Positions 9,755-57,335 of a stretch of 57,688 nucleotides of DNA are shown piece after piece. Source of the stretch: an uncultured delta proteobacterium (GTDB lineage: Bacteria > Desulfobacterota > Binatia > Bin18); contig CAVTCR010000014.1 of the NCBI GenBank assembly GCA_963733195.1, positions 1 to 57,688 on the forward strand, written 5' to 3'. How positions within the stretch are numbered: position 1 is the stretch's first letter; each line of letters opens with the position of its first letter. The translations under genes were made by a program, and so were the position numbers. The notes under the pieces were generated by a model. The model ran no database searches. It was not told where the DNA came from and was given only the letters and a program-made list of their open reading frames with translations.

Positions 9755-9982
9755 ATGTGTAAGCAAATGCTCACACTGATTCTGCTGCTCTGCGTGTTTG
9801 GAAATGGGTGTGCGGTGTCGCAAAGTCAACGACTATCCTCGACTCAGGATGAGGTGACGAGCACGCCACGGGAACGCAGGTTTGTGAGAGTTCCTCGTCC
9901 ATTTATCGGTATCCCCTATGTCGGTATTGGTGGCATCGGGGCTGGCATAGGAGGTGTAGGCGGTGGGGGCGTCTGCCATTGA
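9755..9982 (+). CDS. Small putative secreted/lipoprotein with Gly-rich C-terminus
   Basis: GAGGTG RBS; hydrophobic signal-like stretch ending GNGC; tail GIGGIGAGIGGVGGGGVCH. Confidence 0.5.
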   Translation: MCKQMLTLILLLCVFGNGCAVSQSQRLSSTQDEVTSTPRERRFVRVPRPFIGIPYVGIGGIGAGIGGVGGGGVCH

Positions 9983-39769: not shown

Positions 39770-41098
39770 TTACAATTTTGTCTTGGCCTGTAGATCTTGG
39801 ACTAAGGTCTTACTGGCGAGCCAGAAAAAGAAGCTCGCGCTGAGGCTCATCACCACGGAAGTTCCGAGGAGAGAGTAGCGCACGGCATCAGGTGTCCCAA
39901 TCACATCATTGAGAATCCCCACTGTCTGTGGGCCAGCACCTAACCCAATGACGGTGACAATGAAGAGATAAACCGCTGATGCCATCGCCCGCATCGTGGG
40001 CGGAACCAACTCCTGAATAACTGCAACCGATGGCCCTAACCAGAAGGTGCCGAAGATATTCGCGGGAAACAGGCATAAGAGCGCGAGTCGATGGTCGGGA
40101 AGCAACAGCGCGGCAACGGTAAACGGGATCGAGAGTAGCACCCCGATCAGGCTGACATACAGCCGTGCCCGCGGTTCGTGCCGGCCCCAGCGGTCAGCGA
40201 GCCACCCGCCAGCAAAGGTGCCGATACCGCCTCCAAGCGCGACAGTCCACGAGAGCCACAGCCCCAACTCGCCAGGTGTCATATGATGCACGCGGATAAA
40301 GAACACCGGCCCCCAGGTTCCACCGCTATACGCTGCAAATGATTGCAATGCCGCCGCCAGGCTAAGTCGGCGACCTGTTGTCAGCGTTCTGAAAAAACGC
40401 CCAACTTCCTGGAGGCTGTACGCACGCAGATTGGTCGTGTGCTGCTCCCGCCAGCCACGTGGCAATTCACGAACTGTGAAGCGTACAACCAATGCCATCA
40501 CTACCCCAGGCAAACCAACAGCAAAAAACGCTGCCCGCCATCCATAGGCATCATTAATCCATCCACCCAGCCAAAACCCCAATCCGACACCGACGTAGAC
40601 TCCACAAGCATAAATGGAGAGGGCCGTTGCGCGCTTTTCTGGAGGGAAATAATCCGATAACAACGAGTGTCCTGGCGGTGCAGAGCCTGCTTCTCCGATG
40701 CCCACCCCGATCCGTGCGAGAGCTAAGTCAGTAAATCCCCGTGCCAGACCAGAGACCGCGGTCATCAGACTCCAGATTGCCAAGCAGATAGCAATGAGGC
40801 TGCGTCGACTCCACCGATCCGCGATGCGCGCGAGTGGAATGCCAGCGACTGTATAAAAGATCGCAAAGGCAAGACCTGTCAGAAAACCTAGGGCAGTATC
40901 CGAAATCTTGAGGTCGTCTTTGATCGGCTGGAGCAAAATCGAGAGGATCTGCCGGTCGATGTAATTAAAGATGGTAACAACGAACAACACCCCTAAGACA
41001 TAATAGGCATAGGCTTGGCTCACATCTGGACTTGCGACGCCCTCGGGGCTCACCCCTTGTGCTGAGGTTTGCTCTCGCTCCTCCGCCGACGTCGGCAT
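39770..41098 (-). CDS. MFS transporter (spinster-like)
   Basis: FNYIDRQ, ARIADRWSRR motif A, RIGVGIGEA, about 12 hydrophobic segments. Confidence 0.9.
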   Translation of the reverse strand: MPTSAEEREQTSAQGVSPEGVASPDVSQAYAYYVLGVLFVVTIFNYIDRQILSILLQPIKDDLKISDTALGFLTGLAFAIFYTVAGIPLARIADRWSRRSLIAICLAIWSLMTAVSGLARGFTDLALARIGVGIGEAGSAPPGHSLLSDYFPPEKRATALSIYACGVYVGVGLGFWLGGWINDAYGWRAAFFAVGLPGVVMALVVRFTVRELPRGWREQHTTNLRAYSLQEVGRFFRTLTTGRRLSLAAALQSFAAYSGGTWGPVFFIRVHHMTPGELGLWLSWTVALGGGIGTFAGGWLADRWGRHEPRARLYVSLIGVLLSIPFTVAALLLPDHRLALLCLFPANIFGTFWLGPSVAVIQELVPPTMRAMASAVYLFIVTVIGLGAGPQTVGILNDVIGTPDAVRYSLLGTSVVMSLSASFFFWLASKTLVQDLQAKTKL

Positions 41099-41280
41099 CA
41101 GTTGCTCCCCCCTTTTTTGCCAAACACCAGATTGTGCGGCCCCACTATACTCATGCAAAAACGCACCCCCCTCCTAGCATACTGCGATACGCAAGACCAG
41201 CAGACGCCCCTTCATCTCTCTTGCGTTTCACCGGTGGCATGCTACAGCACAAAACAAGAAAACCCGGAAGGGACACGTCA

Positions 41281-41728
41281 ATGCGTTGTACAAGCTGTGG
41301 GGAGACAAATCCTGAGGAGGGGAATGCAGCAGAGGACTGGCGGTGCTGACCCCAATGCTGACGATGGTACAGAAGGGAGGCGAACTGTGGTACGAGGCGG
41401 AGTTGTATCGACTCTACGGAGAACTGTCGCTCCGAGCGGGCGAAAAGGCGAAAGGGCGAAGGAGTTCCATGTCGCCCCATCGCCCGGTCTCCCAGTCGCC
41501 CCTTCGTCTCCAGAAGAGTGTTTCCTGAACGCTATCGAGATCGCCCAACGCCAGCAAGCGAAGTCGCTCGAATTACGTGCTGCCACGAGCCTCGCTCGTC
41601 TGTGGCAACGACAAGGCAAGCAACACGAAGCTCACCAGATGTTATCCGAGATCTACGGCTGGTTCACCGAGGGGTTTGATACGAAGGATCTGCAACAGGC
41701 AAAGGCCTTGCTTGACGAACTGTCCTAA
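41281..41728 (+). pseudogene. Collapsed remnant of a third cyclase-AAA-TPR gene
   Basis: Zinc-ribbon start MRCTSCGETNPE joined almost directly to the terminal TPR segment [39 protein letters not shown]. Confidence 0.75.
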
Positions 41729-41800
41729 GCCCTGCTGCTCTGTTCTTTTAAGGACAAAAAACTGGACTGCCCGCCCTTCGACAGGGGCTGTTCAGAAACA

Positions 41801-41896
41801 AAATGCCCAACTGGTGCTACCAACTCGATAATAGAGTTGACGTGTAACATTGCGGCACATTCCAATCCTCACCCAACCAGTGAGGTTGGGTGCTAC
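41801..41896 (-). CRISPR. Detached trailer segment of the CRISPR array
   Basis: Repeat at 41859-41896 (36/38 to consensus), 38-nt spacer 41821-41858, degenerate repeat ending GGTGCTAC at 41820. Confidence 0.8.
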
Positions 41897-42052
41897 CGAA
41901 GCTAGGCAAACGCAACGCCGCTTCGCAAGAGAATCCCGTCCCAGCGAGCTCGCTGGTGTACGTCGGTATGATGTCAATGAGCTTGAACACATTGAGGGTG
42001 TTCTGGCGATCTTTTGGGTCTTTCGCTATAGTGATCCCAGAGAGGAAACTGT

Positions 42053-42319
42053 ATGGCGACGGCTACGGTAACTCAGATCGTCAAGCAAATTCAAAAACTG
42101 TCTCCCAACGAACAACAAGAATTGCGTACAGCCTTAGGCGTCCTCCTCACCCCAACTCCCTCGCTTACCGAGGAGGAATTGCATCGCCGATTGGCCGCTC
42201 AGGGGCGGCTCAGCGTCCCGTCTCCTGACTCGCGTTCCCGTGCACCACGCCGCTCTTTCAAACCAGTCCCAGTCCGTGGTAAGCCGGTCTCGGAAACCAT
42301 CATCGAGGAGCGTCGCTAA
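42053..42319 (+). CDS. Putative antitoxin (VapB-like) inside the CRISPR array
   Basis: 88 aa, C-terminal PVRGKPVSETIIEERR typical of PIN-associated antitoxins; GAGG RBS; abuts the PIN gene. Confidence 0.8.
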   Translation: MATATVTQIVKQIQKLSPNEQQELRTALGVLLTPTPSLTEEELHRRLAAQGRLSVPSPDSRSRAPRRSFKPVPVRGKPVSETIIEERR

Positions 42320-42784
42320 GTGGCGGCGTACTTCGTCGATAGCAGCGCTCTCGTCAAACGGTACGTCATTGAATCCGGCACGCCGTGGGTACGCAACCTT
42401 TGCGCTCCTGCGGCAGGTAATACCCTCTACATTGCTCGCATCACCGGCGCGGAAGTCATTGCTGCCCTGAGCCGCCGTGCGCGGATGGGAAGTTTGACAC
42501 AGAGTACGGCACAAAGCGCCCTGGTAGCGTTCCGGACTGACTATGCCAGCGTTTACTTCGTCTCGGAGATTACCGCTATCCTGATTGACCGCGCCATGGA
42601 TTTGGCGCAAAGACGGGGACTTCGTGGTTATGATGCAGTGCAGCTTGCCGCTGCGCTTGACGTCAATGCCGAACGGAGCGGATATAGACTGTCTCTGCTG
42701 ACACTGGTCTCTGCCGATACAGATCTCAATCATGCTGCCGTAGCCGAAGGGCTTACCGTTGAAAACCCTAACGATAATCCCTGA
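42320..42784 (+). CDS. vapC: VapC family PIN-domain toxin inside the CRISPR array
   Basis: YFVDSSALVKRY..E..LRGYDAVQLAAA..VSAD..L..AA..EGL.VENP; all acidic motifs present. Confidence 0.9.
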   Translation: MAAYFVDSSALVKRYVIESGTPWVRNLCAPAAGNTLYIARITGAEVIAALSRRARMGSLTQSTAQSALVAFRTDYASVYFVSEITAILIDRAMDLAQRRGLRGYDAVQLAAALDVNAERSGYRLSLLTLVSADTDLNHAAVAEGLTVENPNDNP

Positions 42785-42882
42785 CCAGCTCGACAGACTT
42801 TTTCTTCTCCTTCCGTAAGTTTGTTTCTTCTTGTCTTGTTGTTTTCATAGCTGCGCGAGGCTTATTACTGTCCGTAGTTCTC

Positions 42883-43126
42883 AGGTTGGGTGCTGCACGC
42901 CGGAGGACCGCTGTGGGTTAATCCGCTGCATGAGTTTCAATCCTCACCCAACCAGTGAGGTTGGGTGCTACGAGCATTCGCGGTCCAGTGGATGAGCTTT
43001 ACTTGATCCGTAGGTTTCAATCCTCACCCAACCAGTGAGGTTGGGTGCTACCTCACCCATCCTGAGGGAGCGTACCTAGGCCCATAGTGTTTCAATCCTC
43101 ACCCAACCAGTGAGGTTGGGTGCTAC
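42883..43126 (-). CRISPR. Type I-C CRISPR array; repeat GTAGCACCCAACCTCACTGGTTGGGTGAGGATTGAAAC (38 nt)
   Basis: Identical repeats at 42934-42971, 43014-43051 and 43089-43126; partial repeat at 42883-42896; spacers of 37, 42 and 37 nt; 9-bp stem; ATTGAAAC 3' handle gives minus orientation. Confidence 0.95.
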
Positions 43127-43335
43127 GCCGACCTCCCAAGCCCTTGTGAGGCTTGGGGTTTTTCTCTCGTTTGCGCGATCCGAATTGTCGACGGACAAAA
43201 GCGGACAAGCCTCGAAATCGCGGAACGAGAAAGTTGTTAAAAATAAGCATCTTAGAGCCAACGCGATCCTCCCTGGGTTTGTGCTGTCGCTCTAGGTTCG
43301 CGCGACGCCTGTCCTCCTGTCGCCAAACGGGGCTG
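43127..43335 (-). promoter_or_regulatory. CRISPR leader
   Basis: Non-coding, adjacent to the first perfect repeat; minus strand has GCGAACCTAGAGCG..AAACCC..GGATCGCG, resembling type I-C leader motifs. Confidence 0.75.
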
Positions 43336-43548
43336 TCAGAGCAGCTCGCGAAATTCTTCCAGGCTTAACCCTGCATCCCGGACGATTCCTCCCATCGTAA
43401 TGGCATTGATCGGATTGTGTCGTGGGATAGTGAGAATACGCACACCGTCTGACATCACTATGTGTTTTCCTTGTCGCACGATACGAAAACCTGCCTTCTC
43501 CAGTGCCCGGACAGCGTGTTGATGATTGATGCCTGGCAGCTTCGGCAT
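43336..43548 (-). CDS. hicA: HicA family toxin
   Basis: AVRALEKAGF..RQGKHIVM..TIPRH..TMGGIVRDAGLS. Confidence 0.9.
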   Translation of the reverse strand: MPKLPGINHQHAVRALEKAGFRIVRQGKHIVMSDGVRILTIPRHNPINAITMGGIVRDAGLSLEEFRELL

Positions 43549-43550
43549 GG

Positions 43551-43757
43551 CTATACCACGACATCCACTTCTCGCACCTCGGCCTCGGGCGTCTCTTGGA
43601 GTAAGTCATTAACAGCGGCGAGATACTCTCGAATGGCATCTTGAATATTTTCCATCGCTTCTGTTTCAGTGGCCCCCTGCGACCAACAACCAGGCAACCC
43701 GGGGCAAGACACACTGTAGCCTTCTTCAGATTTCTGCAGGACAATTTTGTATCGCAT
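43551..43757 (-). CDS. hicB: Short HicB family antitoxin
   Basis: EEGYSVSCPGLPGCWSQGATETEAMENIQDAIREYL; 68 aa with no DNA-binding extension. Confidence 0.9.
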   Translation of the reverse strand: MRYKIVLQKSEEGYSVSCPGLPGCWSQGATETEAMENIQDAIREYLAAVNDLLQETPEAEVREVDVVV

Positions 43758-43782
43758 AATCGCTTCTTCTCTCTTGCCGGTT

Positions 43783-54188: not shown

Positions 54189-56418
54189 CTATGCAATTAA
54201 GTCGTTTGGATCGGGGATCGTCTCACCGACCAACACACCCAGGTCTGGGTGATACAGCGCATCGGCAGTCTGGGCGAACATGCCGGGATAAATCTCTTGT
54301 ACGTCGCCGTTCCCGAGCAGTTTCTTGAATTGATATTCCGGTAGTGACACCGTGTAGCGCTGGAGCTTGCGCATCAGCCAGCGTTCTGGGCCGCCTTTCT
54401 GTAGTCGACCAATTAACGTCGGGCTTTCGCCGTAGCGGACGATAACGCTGCGATAGCCAGACTCGTCGATCAACTGGAAACGTTGTGCGGCAGTACGAAA
54501 CTGGACTTTCAGTGATCCTCGCTTTGCCCTCTGGTTTAAGCAGTCCGGTAATATCGTGTTTATCCAACGATCGCGCACGCATATAGAAATGCTCGAAGTA
54601 ACTGCGAAACAAATCACGCGTGAGCGGATGGGTGGTCACGCCAGTCAGCAGCGAAATAGTGGTTTCGGCTGAGCAGTAAGTGACCACGTGGTAGCTTGGG
54701 TGGCACGAACACAATTACTTGCCAAGTTCCAGTTTGCCTTCGCGGTTGCAACGTCCTGCCGCTTGCGCAATAGAGTCCAATCCCGCAAGCGCGCGATACA
54801 CGACAGGAAAATCTACATCCACGCCGGCCTCCACGAGTTGCGTACTCACGACACGCACCGCTTCACCTGCAAGCAGTCGTTGTTTGATGTCAGCGATAAC
54901 CCGCGAACGATGTTCACCGCACATCAAGGCTGACAGGTGTAGGGTGCCTTCTGGCATGCGACGATGAGTTCTCGGGCGTCGGTACGCGAGTTCACCACTA
55001 CCAAGACAGAAGGGTGTTGTTGCACTTGCTGCTGCGATGTCGTCCCACTCCTGTGTCAGGTGAAAGTCTTGCGGCATTGCACGGTAACGCGCTCTAGGTC
55101 GCGATACAGAGCGTCTGGGTCGGCGATGATTTCGTGCATGTTGTCGAGACCACGAAGCGTACGTTGAAAAGTCCGCAGCGTACCAAGCGCTGGTTGGGTC
55201 GCGGTCGATAACACAAACGTTACGCCATAGTGACGCACCAGCAGATTCATCACATCGAGGATGGGTTGTAAGAACTCAGGTGGTAACAGTTGTGCCTCGT
55301 CCAGCACTACCACACTGTTGACAATACTGTGTAGCTTGCGACAGCGACTTGTCTTAGCCGCGAATAGCGACTCAAAGAACTGGACGTTGGTGGTCACAAT
55401 CAACGGTGCGTCCCAGTTTTCCGTTGCTAGACGACTCTTCACCGTTTCGTTGTCTGGATCGAGATTGCTGTGATGTTCAACTACAGCGTCGGGAAAAATG
55501 TCACGAAAAATGTTCGCAGTCTGTTCGATAATACTAGTGTATGGAATGGCGTAGATCACTCTTCGTTTGTTGTGAAGAACGGCGTGTTCAAGAGCAAAGG
55601 CAAGGCTCGATAATGTTTTGCCGCCGCCAGTAGGTACTGTTAATGAAAACACACCTGGCGTGTTCGTGCCTGGTCTCGACACTGGCGGAGCACCTCAGCG
55701 CGGATACGGTTCACGAGTGTAGACGGAGCACTGGCGAATTGTTTTTCCATGTAGGCGTTGAAGTGCGGCAATAACTCTTGCATGGAGAGAGTGCCTATAC
55801 GTTGTACTGCCTTGCCTTCGTCCATAAAGGCTTCGGTATCGAGGAAATCGGCATCCACCAAGCACGAAAACAACATGCGCACCCACAAGGCAAATCCCTC
55901 AGCCTTCCAAGCAACGGGCTCACGGGCTTAGTCTGTGTGAGAATCTCGGATGAAATTGTTTGGCTGAGGGCGCGTTGTAAGTGGCTTTTATCTTCAAGAC
56001 GCACTTTCAGTGCCCCGCCACCAGTTTCGCTTATATGCCAGTCAGGTAACCCGGCGTGATGCCCTGCGATAATGTATGCCAGAATGCGCCCAAGTATGCC
56101 GAATTGCTCCACGGCATGCTGCGCCCCAGCGGTGGAGTGATCGACACGGCCAACCTTCCCTTCAAGGTGCGCATCAGGATCATAGCCGGATACGGACTTG
56201 ATGCGCCGTTGGAATTCCGCACTATATTTCCCCAGGTCATGCCACAGCCCGGCCACCTGCGCCCAATCTCCACTGCCAAAATTTCGTGCATATTCCTCAG
56301 CACGTTGCGCCACGCCGCGCAGGTGCTCGTTGAGGTCGTGCGGAATGAACGTCTCGCCGTCTTGGCGGACGTGGGCAAGATAGCTGACAGGGTTATGTTG
56401 TTTTGCTTCTTTTGCCAT
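54189..56418 (-). CDS. cas3: Cas3 HD nuclease-helicase (multiple frameshifts)
   Basis: [65 protein letters not shown]. Confidence 0.92.
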
Positions 56419-57125
56419 TGGTGTTTTTCGTGGGCAAAGCTCCGCCGATTGGCCGTGAGAGTGCCTCGCGGTCGAAATTCGACGCTGGGCACCTAGGTCC
56501 TTCTGTCCAAGACGTCTACTCGTTGTGAGCGTAACGCTCGCAGAGCTGCGCAGAAGAGAGTTGCTGATGAGGTGAATGGAAGAGGTTGATCTCTCTGGCT
56601 GTGCAACTCGGTGTACGTTTCCCCAATGCCCACTTTAACACTTGTGGTGAGCGATCCGCAAATTGATGAGGAGTCCGTGTGAGGTGAACCTTAAACCGAA
56701 GAGCATGACAGCAGAAACCGGATGCTCCTGGATTCCGGGTCGCGGCCTGCAGCCTTGCCCGGAATGACGGGCTGCCACTTGTCCCAGGTTCTACCGGGAC
56801 GAGTGTCCGATACAGGTCGAAAATTTTGTTTCTGAGCAGCCCTTCGACTCCGCTCACCTGTGCCTGCGGCACTGGCGCAGGCAGGATAAACTCCGCGAAG
56901 AATCTCACTGAGAGACCCTTCACTGTGTTTAGGGTGATAATTCTGGGGTGCTAATTTCTTGAAGTCTGGGTTAGTAGCTCTCTGAACATTCCGAGGGGAA
57001 GTCGAACCTGGGTTCCTATTTGCAGAGGATGACGGAAGTCAGGAAACTGTCGTCAAGCGGTAGCACGGTAATGAGGTGGGAGAAACGTTTGAAGTCGTCG
57101 AGAAAATCCTTCTACCGTCCCCATT

Positions 57126-57335
57126 AGTCATACATATCCTCACGTCTGAGTGAGATCCTTCAGGCCAAGGTCCATAATCACGAGCCGGTAGGTTCAAGGA
57201 TGGTCGATCGTGCTTAGTTGCAAGCTGCTCCTCAATCACCATCACGATGTGATGCTCTCCTGGCGGAATATCCGAGGGTACCTGGATGGTCATTTTGCCA
57301 TCGTCTGTGACTGTAACCGTTGTCTCAATAGTTTT
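57126..57335 (-). pseudogene. Small antitoxin-like gene cut off from its start codon by ISL3
   Basis: KTIETTVTVTDDGKMTIQVPSDIPPGEH..WPEG/LRREDMYD begins at the first base outside the IS end. Confidence 0.55.

Follow-up and report, generated by a model that had tools for sequence, protein, structure and literature searches.

A VapBC-like toxin-antitoxin operon inside a type I-C CRISPR array of a decaying locus in an uncultured delta proteobacterium

The present analysis concerns contig C14 (CAVTCR010000014.1) from the draft genome GCA_963733195.1 of an uncultured delta proteobacterium; the contig was analysed at its complete length of 57,688 bp and is called the window below. The draft comprises 87 contigs, with 93% completeness and 4.5% contamination. 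On the minus strand of the window lies a small type I-C CRISPR array, and inside this array, between a truncated and a near-perfect repeat, 986 nt of DNA carry an intact toxin-antitoxin (TA) operon of the VapBC kind on the opposite strand. From the leader to the far end of the array, the features are the following (ORF, open reading frame; aa, amino acids):

43127..43335, minus strand: leader of 209 nt between hicA and repeat 1, with homologous leaders on contig C51 of the same assembly (90%) and in genomes G010, G025 and G012.
42897..43126, minus strand: array core of three perfect 38-nt repeats with spacers of 37, 42 and 37 nt (repeat search, Rfam, folding).
42883..42896, minus strand: truncated repeat, consisting of the first 14 nt (13/14 identical) and stopping at the first loop nucleotide.
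41897..42882, no strand: insert of 986 nt without similarity to repeat or leader, of which 41996-42784 is common with vapBC loci elsewhere.
42320..42784, plus strand: vapC PIN toxin gene, intact ORF of 154 aa (Pfam PIN, E 5.4e-7), whose GTG start abuts the vapB stop.
42053..42319, plus strand: vapB-like antitoxin gene, intact ORF of 88 aa (position, conserved C-terminus, predicted VapC binding).
41996..42052, plus strand: conserved upstream region with a CGCTATAG(T) block (three-way DNA alignment with genomes G018 and G005).
41859..41896, minus strand: distal repeat, 36/38 identical, with both changes at the 3′ end, the hairpin intact and 34 nt shared with the consensus.
41821..41858, minus strand: distal spacer of 37-38 nt, with genome matches at chance level only.
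41784..41820 (about), minus strand: degenerate terminal repeat, keeping only GTAGCACC and GTTGGG, in the expected phase.
41757..41784, minus strand: terminator-like hairpin and T run directly past the array (consensus scan only).

A search for the 38-nt repeat with up to 3 mismatches gave four matches, namely three perfect copies (43089-43126, 43014-43051 and 42934-42971) and the 36/38 copy at 41859-41896, and none of 100 shuffled sequences gave any. With the Rfam model CRISPR-DR9 each perfect repeat scored 44.5 bits (E 2.5e-8) on the minus strand, just under the gathering score of 45, and the distal repeat, also below the gathering score, 33.1 bits (E 6.3e-5); the strand of these matches gives the repeats the same orientation as the cas genes. 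When folded, the repeat forms a stem of 9 bp, in which positions 5-13 pair with 19-27, and a loop of 5 nt (-17.1 kcal/mol); its 3′ end, ...ATTGAAAC, is one that we take to be typical of type I-C. A search for the truncated 14-mer gave 5 matches in the window against 0.30 expected, a number reached by 0 of 100 shuffles. Beyond nucleotide 14 the match to the repeat falls to about 10 of 24 positions by hand count (11 in a gapped alignment), and the 38 nt starting at the truncated copy cannot make the repeat hairpin (-1.3 kcal/mol). The global alignment score of the terminal repeat was not above that of shuffles, and its label rests on the phase and the GTAGCACC and GTTGGG blocks. A first-pass annotation of the same DNA, made from its letters, had described three perfect repeats, a 37-nt spacer and a 14-nt remnant, then about 1 kb with an antitoxin and a full PIN toxin on the opposite strand, and finally a 36/38 repeat, a 38-nt spacer and a degenerate terminal repeat. 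The present searches returned the same anatomy at the same positions, with the distal spacer at 37-38 nt.

When compared with the whole genome, spacers 1-3 and the distal spacer gave chance matches only (11-16 nt, best E 0.039), none of them in the locus. Spacer 2 (42972-43013) has 42 nt, compared with 32-38 nt for the 13 spacers seen on C51. A scan for sigma-70 promoters over 41600-43900 gave 0 sites, and because of this the promoters named here are putative ones. On the plus strand of the leader, at 43134-43158 and thus opposite to the array strand, a strong hairpin with a T run, terminator-like in form, lies at a distance of 8 nt from repeat 1; the C51 leader has a similar sequence. This hairpin could halt antisense transcription arriving from the array side. 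At the other end of the array, a plus-strand ORF (41069-41728) abuts the array; its final domain (41380-41725) is multicopy in this and related genomes, and since the rest of such multicopy-domain genes is missing, the trailer flank is also a truncation.

The truncated piece duplicates the opening 14 nt of the distal repeat (transcribed orientation) as a direct copy; the two start exactly 1000 nt apart, so that a duplication of the staggered-cut kind is present around the insert; as a direct duplication (13/14) it fits a target-site duplication and a cut repeat equally well. No terminal inverted repeats were found at the insert ends and no transposase or recombinase ORF within the insert, where vapB and vapC are the only ORFs with a family or relatives. 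The first-pass annotation had noted neither transposase nor inverted repeats nor target-site duplication: the first two statements stand, while the third needs correcting, since a 14-nt copy that may be such a duplication is visible. It had also proposed that a TA cassette entered at a repeat hairpin. This holds for the place, since the leader-side junction lies inside the hairpin loop at nt 14; for the route, break repair, recombination through repeats and staggered integration of the Cas1 type (Cas1-Cas2) all fit. In G001, a genome of the same genus, a partial repeat likewise begins within the loop, at position 17. The insert flanks at 41897-41995 (99 nt) and 42785-42882 (98 nt) had no match in any search made, and neither a donor nor an empty site for the insert was found among the family genomes, metagenome contigs, plasmids and phages searched. 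A blastn search with 41780-43130 gave a single 89-nt match of 75% identity among plasmids, inside the vapB/vapC junction, and none among phages.

The pair itself looks whole and functional, as judged from its sequence and a structure model. In an alignment of 16 sequences of the VapC family, E45, D105 and D133 were invariant and D7 nearly invariant, and the length of the window VapC equals that of its relatives. VapB had no match in Pfam or NCBIfam, hence no known DNA-binding antitoxin fold (AbrB, RHH, Phd) was recognised, and the name VapB-like therefore reflects only where the gene stands and the predicted binding. A motif at its C-terminus is conserved across relatives. Among 163 other loci of the VapC family (80 taken from species genomes, another 80 from metagenome contigs and the last 3 from genomes of the same taxonomic family), a VapB homologue stands directly upstream of the PIN gene in 139; in 19 no VapB was detected despite room for it, 4 loci were on contigs too short to tell, and in 1 locus the gene was not adjacent. 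The VapB-VapC complex was modelled with an ipSAE of 0.85 against 0.00 for the best control, with a partner pLDDT of 80 and with at least 93% of contacts agreeing between runs; the ipSAE mark applied is reached by 58 of 80 solved complexes and by 2 of 110 mismatched pairs. In the model the C-terminal tail of VapB contacts VapC residues 8-10 and 133. The model supports binding of VapB to VapC, and as solved VapBC complexes exist, its pass may in part reflect likeness to them.

The nearest relatives of the cassette were found in G018 (77% nucleotide identity) and G005 (74%), which belong to other genera of the same family (76-77% amino acid identity), and both copies stand in non-CRISPR surroundings. 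Homology to them starts 57 nt upstream of vapB and stops at the vapC stop codon. By these alignments the vapBC cassette is foreign to the array, and the shared upstream region (41996-42052), which the sigma-70 scan missed, is a probable vapBC promoter. The closest vapBC, in G018 (L012; G018:C658, 1079-2747), lies between two copies (88% identical, at least 300 nt) of a short-chain dehydrogenase gene's 3′ part; as in the window, the cassette is flanked there by direct repeats of its target. A PIN gene upstream of cas3 on C51 (L103:9092-9649) was considered as cassette source and ruled out, its identity being 28%. The window counterpart of this C51 gene seems to be internally deleted, according to ORF translations (57039-57293 and onward).

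In order to see how often such an arrangement occurs, the 163 loci were scanned for CRISPR-like periodic repeats and for type I-C repeats. The family is widespread, with members in 93 of 401 sampled genomes of the class (a tally that takes in four unpublished genomes, used nowhere else) and four copies in the window's own genome. The type I-C repeat scan matched L031 only, and its reversed-repeat control gave 0 matches. Two of the 163 loci, in G010 and on the metagenome contig L157, have a VapBC pair between CRISPR repeats and convergent with the array, so that the survey of repeat-flanked TA pairs advised by the first-pass annotation yielded two cases. In a class-wide search, 0 of 26 further loci had repeats within 1.5 kb. 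Five loci flagged by a crude repeat finder (L050, L162, L086, L045 and L039) carry tandem or irregular repeats and were rejected as CRISPR; four others with two copies each (L034, L101, L151 and L169) were left out of closer inspection.

The locus in G010, another genus of the same family, contains cas8c, cas7, cas4, cas1, cas2, hicB, hicA, a leader and 33 repeats (L189; G010:C1:4001-24000). At its trailer end (L189 8420-15430), repeats of the same orientation stand at 9884, 13747 and 15393 and a degenerate one at 9813, and the segments between them are 1.4-3.8 kb long. Every gene examined in these segments (ORFs of at least 80 aa) is opposite to the array strand: one segment holds a TIR protein and a 215-aa ORF, another a Schlafen/AlbA_2-ATPase-TPR protein and an N6-methylase fragment, and another a second TIR protein with vapC and vapB. 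A unit of a repeat plus 197 nt occurs twice (90.6% identity), as does the TIR gene (84%). The repeats bordering the gene segments are sequence variants of the main-array repeat, and the segments lie between full repeats, without 14-nt pieces.

On the AT-rich contig L157 (1596-3594), a CRISPR-like array with a 72-nt period and 4 copies runs to the contig end; further copies, one with altered outer bases at 2690-2729 and two at 1596-1704, make the array enclose vapB (1858-2124) and vapC (2121-2585). A different repeat, type I-C-like and with a complement ending in GGATTGAAAC like the window repeat, is present in two copies 16 nt upstream of vapB, and the vapBC promoter must therefore sit in or past this mini-array. 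The only Rfam match is a weak one, to CRISPR-DR33 on the minus strand, with E 0.05 and a score that stays under the gathering score; if the orientation of this match is correct, vapBC on L157 is convergent with the array. In a FastTree phylogeny of 160 VapC sequences, the copies of the window, G010 and L157 fell into three separate groups (support 100, 100 and 96), each of which also holds non-array copies. A treekit quick tree, which left out row L110, agrees for the window and G010; L031, which duplicates G010, was removed from the tree data. The VapC proteins of the window and G010 are only 54.5% identical, compared with 85% for Cas1 and 93% for HicA. The separate clades and this divergence indicate that the embeddings are independent and not one inherited insertion. 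The first-pass annotation had asked for related loci with and without the cassette to define the junctions; no close relative with the same spacers turned up among metagenome contigs and family genomes, and in particular, 0 metagenome contigs shared the distal spacer. Viral contigs gave 0 matches to the window repeat type, and VapC relatives were present in 0 of their 19 candidate stretches.

The cas genes beside the array are those of type I-C: the seven signature genes (cas3, cas5, cas8c/Csd1, cas7, cas4, cas1 and cas2) lie on the minus strand in the expected order (Pfam). Together with hicBA and two elements between cas5 and cas3, they are arranged as follows:

43336..43548, minus strand: hicA toxin gene (Pfam HicA_toxin, E 1.4e-8), 93% identical to the G010 copy and in the same position.
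43551..43757, minus strand: hicB antitoxin gene (Pfam HicB_lk_antitox, E 1.3e-9), with its start set at the ATG common with G010.
43783..43819, minus strand: degenerate repeat-like element in the gap between cas2 and hicB, whose alignment to the repeat was equalled by just 1 of 2000 shuffles.
43889..44179, minus strand: cas2, intact (Pfam CRISPR_Cas2, E 7.4e-24), with its start set against the C51 copy.
44193..45224, minus strand: cas1, intact, 343 aa (Pfam Cas_Cas1, E 9.7e-100; 85% identity to G010 Cas1).
45331..45971, minus strand: cas4 in two frames (75 + 138 aa), one ORF covering positions 3-52 of the Pfam Cas_Cas4 profile and the other 54-159.
45975..46874, minus strand: cas7, intact (Pfam Cas_Cas7, E 2.7e-110).
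46874..48627, minus strand: cas8c (Csd1) in two pieces, with Pfam Cas_Csd1 profile positions 345-559 and 1-262 on separate ORFs.
48624..48923, minus strand: cas5, C-terminal fragment only (Pfam Cas_Cas5d profile positions 123-217).
49891-50859, plus strand: group II intron reverse transcriptase gene between cas5 and cas3.
51218-52048, minus strand: DDE transposase gene between cas5 and cas3.
54715..56418, minus strand: cas3 in at least 3 ORF fragments (HD, DEAD and C-terminal; Pfam).

For cas2, the ORF finder runs to 44248 from an upstream TTG, and the Pfam match begins at residue 24 of this long ORF. The contig edge carries the end of an ISL3 transposase. As cas3, cas5, cas8c and cas4 are broken, the interference half of the locus consists of pseudogenes; with four broken cas genes, an intron reverse transcriptase and an insertion sequence, the C14 type I-C locus is in decay.

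A paralogous type I-C locus with an identical repeat is present on contig C51 of the same assembly (examined as stretch L103, C51:760-20759), where at least 14 repeats were counted and the array runs off the contig end. From cas1 up to the array, the two loci are 90.5% identical over 2314 nt. Their decay is complementary: C51 retains complete genes for cas3 (711 aa), cas5, cas8c (631 aa), cas7 and cas4 (223 aa), whereas its cas1 is in two parts (152 + 182 aa), its hicB has a frameshift and its hicA is truncated. Provided that both contigs come from one cell, C51 could supply processing and interference proteins in trans.

The contiguity of the window was compared with public sequencing runs, none of which contained half of the window's words (best share 0.17); parts of the stretch that are uncovered by public-run contigs give no evidence either way. 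One public-run contig spans 42582-42898 with 1 difference and so connects the truncated repeat with the adjoining flank and the 3′ end of vapC. Contiguity across both junctions, for which the first-pass annotation had advised raw reads, is not shown by these runs: the contig ends just inside spacer 3, and the distal junction falls outside it. In public run X1, a 366-nt contig links 42582 to 42337 (region 42337-42385) on opposite strands, inside vapC; this join may stem from misassembly or from a variant with a rearrangement.

Across the leader from the array stands hicBA, as the first-pass annotation had stated, wedged between the repeat remnant at 43783-43819 and the leader. The gene pair occupies this place between cas2 and the leader in two genera (window 43336-43757, minus strand; L189:5387-5807), and hicB of G010 begins within about 25 nt of cas2. 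G025 has no hicBA at this place; there, the cas2 stop is overlapped by a full repeat, with the leader directly behind it. Repeat remnants outside arrays were also observed elsewhere in the lineage. In G001 (L200; G001:C1152, 1570-2426) an orphan unit consists of the last 22 nt of a repeat, a 36-nt spacer and a full repeat, and about 200 nt further on, on the same strand, an RHH antitoxin and a ParE toxin are encoded. This mini-array was found with a degenerate repeat pattern whose spacing was wrong for G010-type repeats, and its zeros in other family genomes therefore carry little weight. On G018:C261 (L202, 431-1662) a solitary type I-C repeat is convergent with a two-gene TIR operon homologous to that of G010 and stands next to a putative restriction-like gene (by reading of the translation), and there is no array on this 2.4-kb contig. 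Solitary repeats were further seen in G025 between cas4 and cas1 (L192 18600-18621) and straight after cas2, and in G012 (L194/L195) between cas1 and cas2; in the window, a stretch at about 45255-45275, before cas1, is weakly similar to the repeat. In the window's own genome, C86:28939-29050 holds an orphan, degenerate pair of type I-C-like repeats with a 35-nt spacer, distant from cas genes and with no TA pair evident beside it. The array of G017 comprises 79 repeats without interruption.

Taken together, a rare rearrangement at a repeat of a decaying array, retained because the TA pair resists repeat-mediated deletion, is the explanation to which we give about an even chance. One such event would have broken a small type I-C array whose transcription begins at the leader beside hicA and follows the minus strand: the fourth repeat would have been cut in its hairpin loop after nt 14, and 986 nt of foreign DNA would have been joined there, bringing in a self-contained vapB-vapC (PIN) operon of presumed type II directed towards the leader. 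What survives past the insert would be the old array end, with its near-perfect repeat, single spacer and degenerate terminal repeat, and behind these the terminator-like hairpin. Entry may have occurred by break repair at the hairpin-forming repeat, or by recombination through repeats and subsequent deletion. As for retention, recombination between repeats would delete array segments, and a deletion that removes vapBC would free a stable toxin from a labile antitoxin, so that TA inserts would outlast other junk; this would in turn explain the same VapBC family inside arrays of two unrelated genomes. Such survivorship would account for addictive and defence genes in array inserts without any regulatory design, and the arrangement may be a recurring accident preserved by the addictiveness of the pair and not a designed circuit.

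As to transcription, the sequence would allow antisense RNA from either side. Folding gave no 3′ processing hairpin for spacer 3, and a consensus scan predicted no terminator-like sites on the minus strand inside the insert. Lacking the repeat hairpin at spacer 3, a precursor CRISPR RNA (pre-crRNA) reading through would run about 1 kb antisense over vapC and vapB and would extend to the next repeat. In the other direction, vapBC transcripts would run antisense into spacers 3 to 1, up to the leader hairpin at 43134-43158.

Several observations weigh against a chance rearrangement kept by survivorship. The geometry is exactly that of a staggered cut, with a 14-nt duplication and the insert flush at the 5′ edge of the full repeat. 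After a single break in one repeat, only nt 15-38 should be present beyond the insert; what stands there is a whole repeat, so that a second, hidden breakpoint in a lost spacer has to be assumed. The independent contig enters spacer 3 by 2 nt only, and a single contig over both junctions comes from the window assembly alone. All three array-embedded VapBC pairs are convergent with their arrays, and on L157 and in G010 type I-C-like repeats also come after the vapB side; the shared convergence and these repeats are hints that point beyond survivorship. Finally, HicA is better conserved than Cas1 and occupies the same place in two genera, so that hicBA, and with it TA modules, may be working parts of this type I-C lineage, a possibility also in line with the published Cas13a-HicAB system. 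On a more far-reaching account, the VapBC family would be lodged recurrently and non-randomly between repeats, always convergent and sometimes with a piece of I-C array; the repeats would capture defence and TA cassettes, possibly by staggered integration of the Cas1 type leaving a 14-nt duplication, and the embedded pair would be functional, as an array lock or in antisense-gated toxin release. We regard this combined account as unlikely.

A selected architecture, in which the convergent VapBC locks the array against repeat-mediated deletion or antisense pre-crRNA ties toxin release to array transcription (the coupling that the first-pass annotation had proposed), is likewise an unlikely explanation. 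Three independent VapC clades inside arrays, all convergent, speak for it, as do the two cases in 163 loci, which are far above the expectation from the tiny share of genomes taken up by arrays (a share that we estimated ourselves). The insert without a predicted minus-strand terminator and the missing processing hairpin at spacer 3 would permit the antisense transcription, and links between TA and CRISPR have been published, namely hicA-CRISPR-hicB with Cas13a (in the consulted part of PMC13448076) and CreTA (in that of PMC10097628). However, 160 of the 163 loci and all 26 further loci are without repeats nearby, a common orientation in three of three cases arises by chance 1 time in 8, neither the vapBC region nor any other part of the locus partly matches the distal spacer, and the interference genes beside the array are broken. 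This last point also weighed against the tuned, addiction-like or abortive-infection-like layout which the first-pass annotation had read from the two TA modules.

That two arrays are involved seems quite unlikely, though the refuting case named by the first-pass annotation, two independent arrays around an ancestral TA, keeps some probability, as no close relative with the same spacers turned up. The 14 nt would then be the decayed terminal repeat of a three-spacer array, vapBC would flank its trailer, and the distal unit would be an orphan mini-array. Orphan mini-arrays do exist in the lineage (C86 in the same genome, and G001 beside a ParDE-type pair), and terminal repeats at this locus do decay. 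Decay would, however, not give 13/14 identity followed abruptly by near-random sequence; moreover, the distal repeat is 36/38 identical and oriented as the core array, and a terminator-like site follows the distal end only.

Staggered integration of the Cas1 type would have 986 nt entering an internal repeat by an attack on one strand at the canonical spacer/repeat boundary and on the other 14 nt away, in the hairpin loop, with gap repair duplicating the 14 nt between. It explains the geometry without a hidden second breakpoint: the truncated piece reproduces the beginning of the distal repeat (13/14), and the insert is flush with the 5′ edge of that repeat. At the locus cas1 and cas2 are intact and cas4 is split. 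Casposases, which are Cas1 homologues, give target-site duplications of 14-15 bp, compared with 25-50 bp for Cas1-Cas2, according to the part of PMC6977970 available to us. On the other side, the 14 nt may be the mere remainder of a cut repeat, in which case the duplication is no independent coincidence, the insert is without terminal inverted repeats, the G010 segments are without 14-nt pieces, and no donor or empty site was found in the searches named above. A type I-C integrase would also have to insert about 1 kb with a short stagger. We know of no report of Cas1-Cas2 integrating kb-sized DNA in cells, although no search aimed at it was made, which counts against this explanation, and on balance it is improbable.

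An assembly artefact fusing two loci or strains via the shared repeat is highly improbable, since the 14 nt of repeat at the leader-side junction are not enough to lead an assembler astray, 42582-42898 is found independently in a public run, and a wrong join at the distal repeat would still leave vapBC flanked by repeat sequence, even though the draft is fragmented and contaminated to the extent given above, C51 carries an identical repeat in an array running off the contig end, and the distal repeat shares 34 nt with the consensus.

If the recurrence holds, it bears on the break-up of arrays and the seeding of orphan mini-arrays, on gene capture by CRISPR repeats and on addictive modules shaping the survival of segments; if it fails, the window shows one more scar in a dying CRISPR locus. 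The 14-nt duplication in addition raises the question of short-stagger, long-DNA insertions by a type I-C integrase. To judge from sequence comparison, the interest of the case is raised by the two further independent examples and by the duplication, and lowered by the decayed state of the locus. A search of the literature in full text, with subscription journals and supplements outside its coverage, gave no intact protein TA operon inside an array.

Among known systems, chromosomal integron arrays contain TA cassettes that are thought to prevent the loss of segments through recombination. Integron cassettes move via an integrase acting on attC sites, and neither the recombinase nor the site is seen in the window insert. 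Casposons show a 14-15-bp duplication around kb-sized DNA integrated by a Cas1 homologue, to which the 14-nt copy beside the window insert is similar; they have terminal inverted repeats and encode a casposase and a polymerase of their own, whereas the insert has none of these (the casposon features as given in the part of PMC6977970 consulted). In the sections of PMC4390879 at hand, CRISPR locus F of Sulfolobus solfataricus is described as containing an 899-bp plasmid-derived fragment between two repeats. As in the window, about 1 kb of foreign DNA replaces spacers in an otherwise regular array; in contrast to the window, the fragment is described in these sections only as a partial match to a conjugative plasmid, the host is an archaeon with another CRISPR type, and the window junction cuts the repeat at nt 14. 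The same sections report vapBC pairs interspersed in the cas gene cassettes of Sulfolobales, with a proposed role in helping to maintain the loci. The toxin class, a PIN VapC with VapB, is the same, but those pairs lie among cas genes and that of the window between repeats.

Two further systems link TA functions to CRISPR more directly. In CreTA, as far as presented in the part of PMC10097628 seen, a small RNA toxin, CreT, lies beside degenerate repeat-spacer units, the crRNA-like CreA guides repression by a class 1 effector, and the cell is made dependent on the CRISPR effector. Regulation of this type was rejected for the window, where the toxin is a PIN protein and the spacers have no partial match to the vapBC region or the locus. 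In the type VI-A arrangement hicA-CRISPR-hicB with cas13a, contacts between Cas13a and HicB and between crRNA and HicAB have been demonstrated (PMC13448076, consulted part). There, the array splits a TA pair, whereas in the window, known from sequence alone, a whole pair splits a type I-C array; the window's own hicB and hicA are adjacent and upstream of the leader, the array does not lie between them, and the locus is not of the cas13a type. TA modules beside cas genes and an array between TA genes (type VI) are thus known already, and what the window adds is a whole TA operon inside an array.

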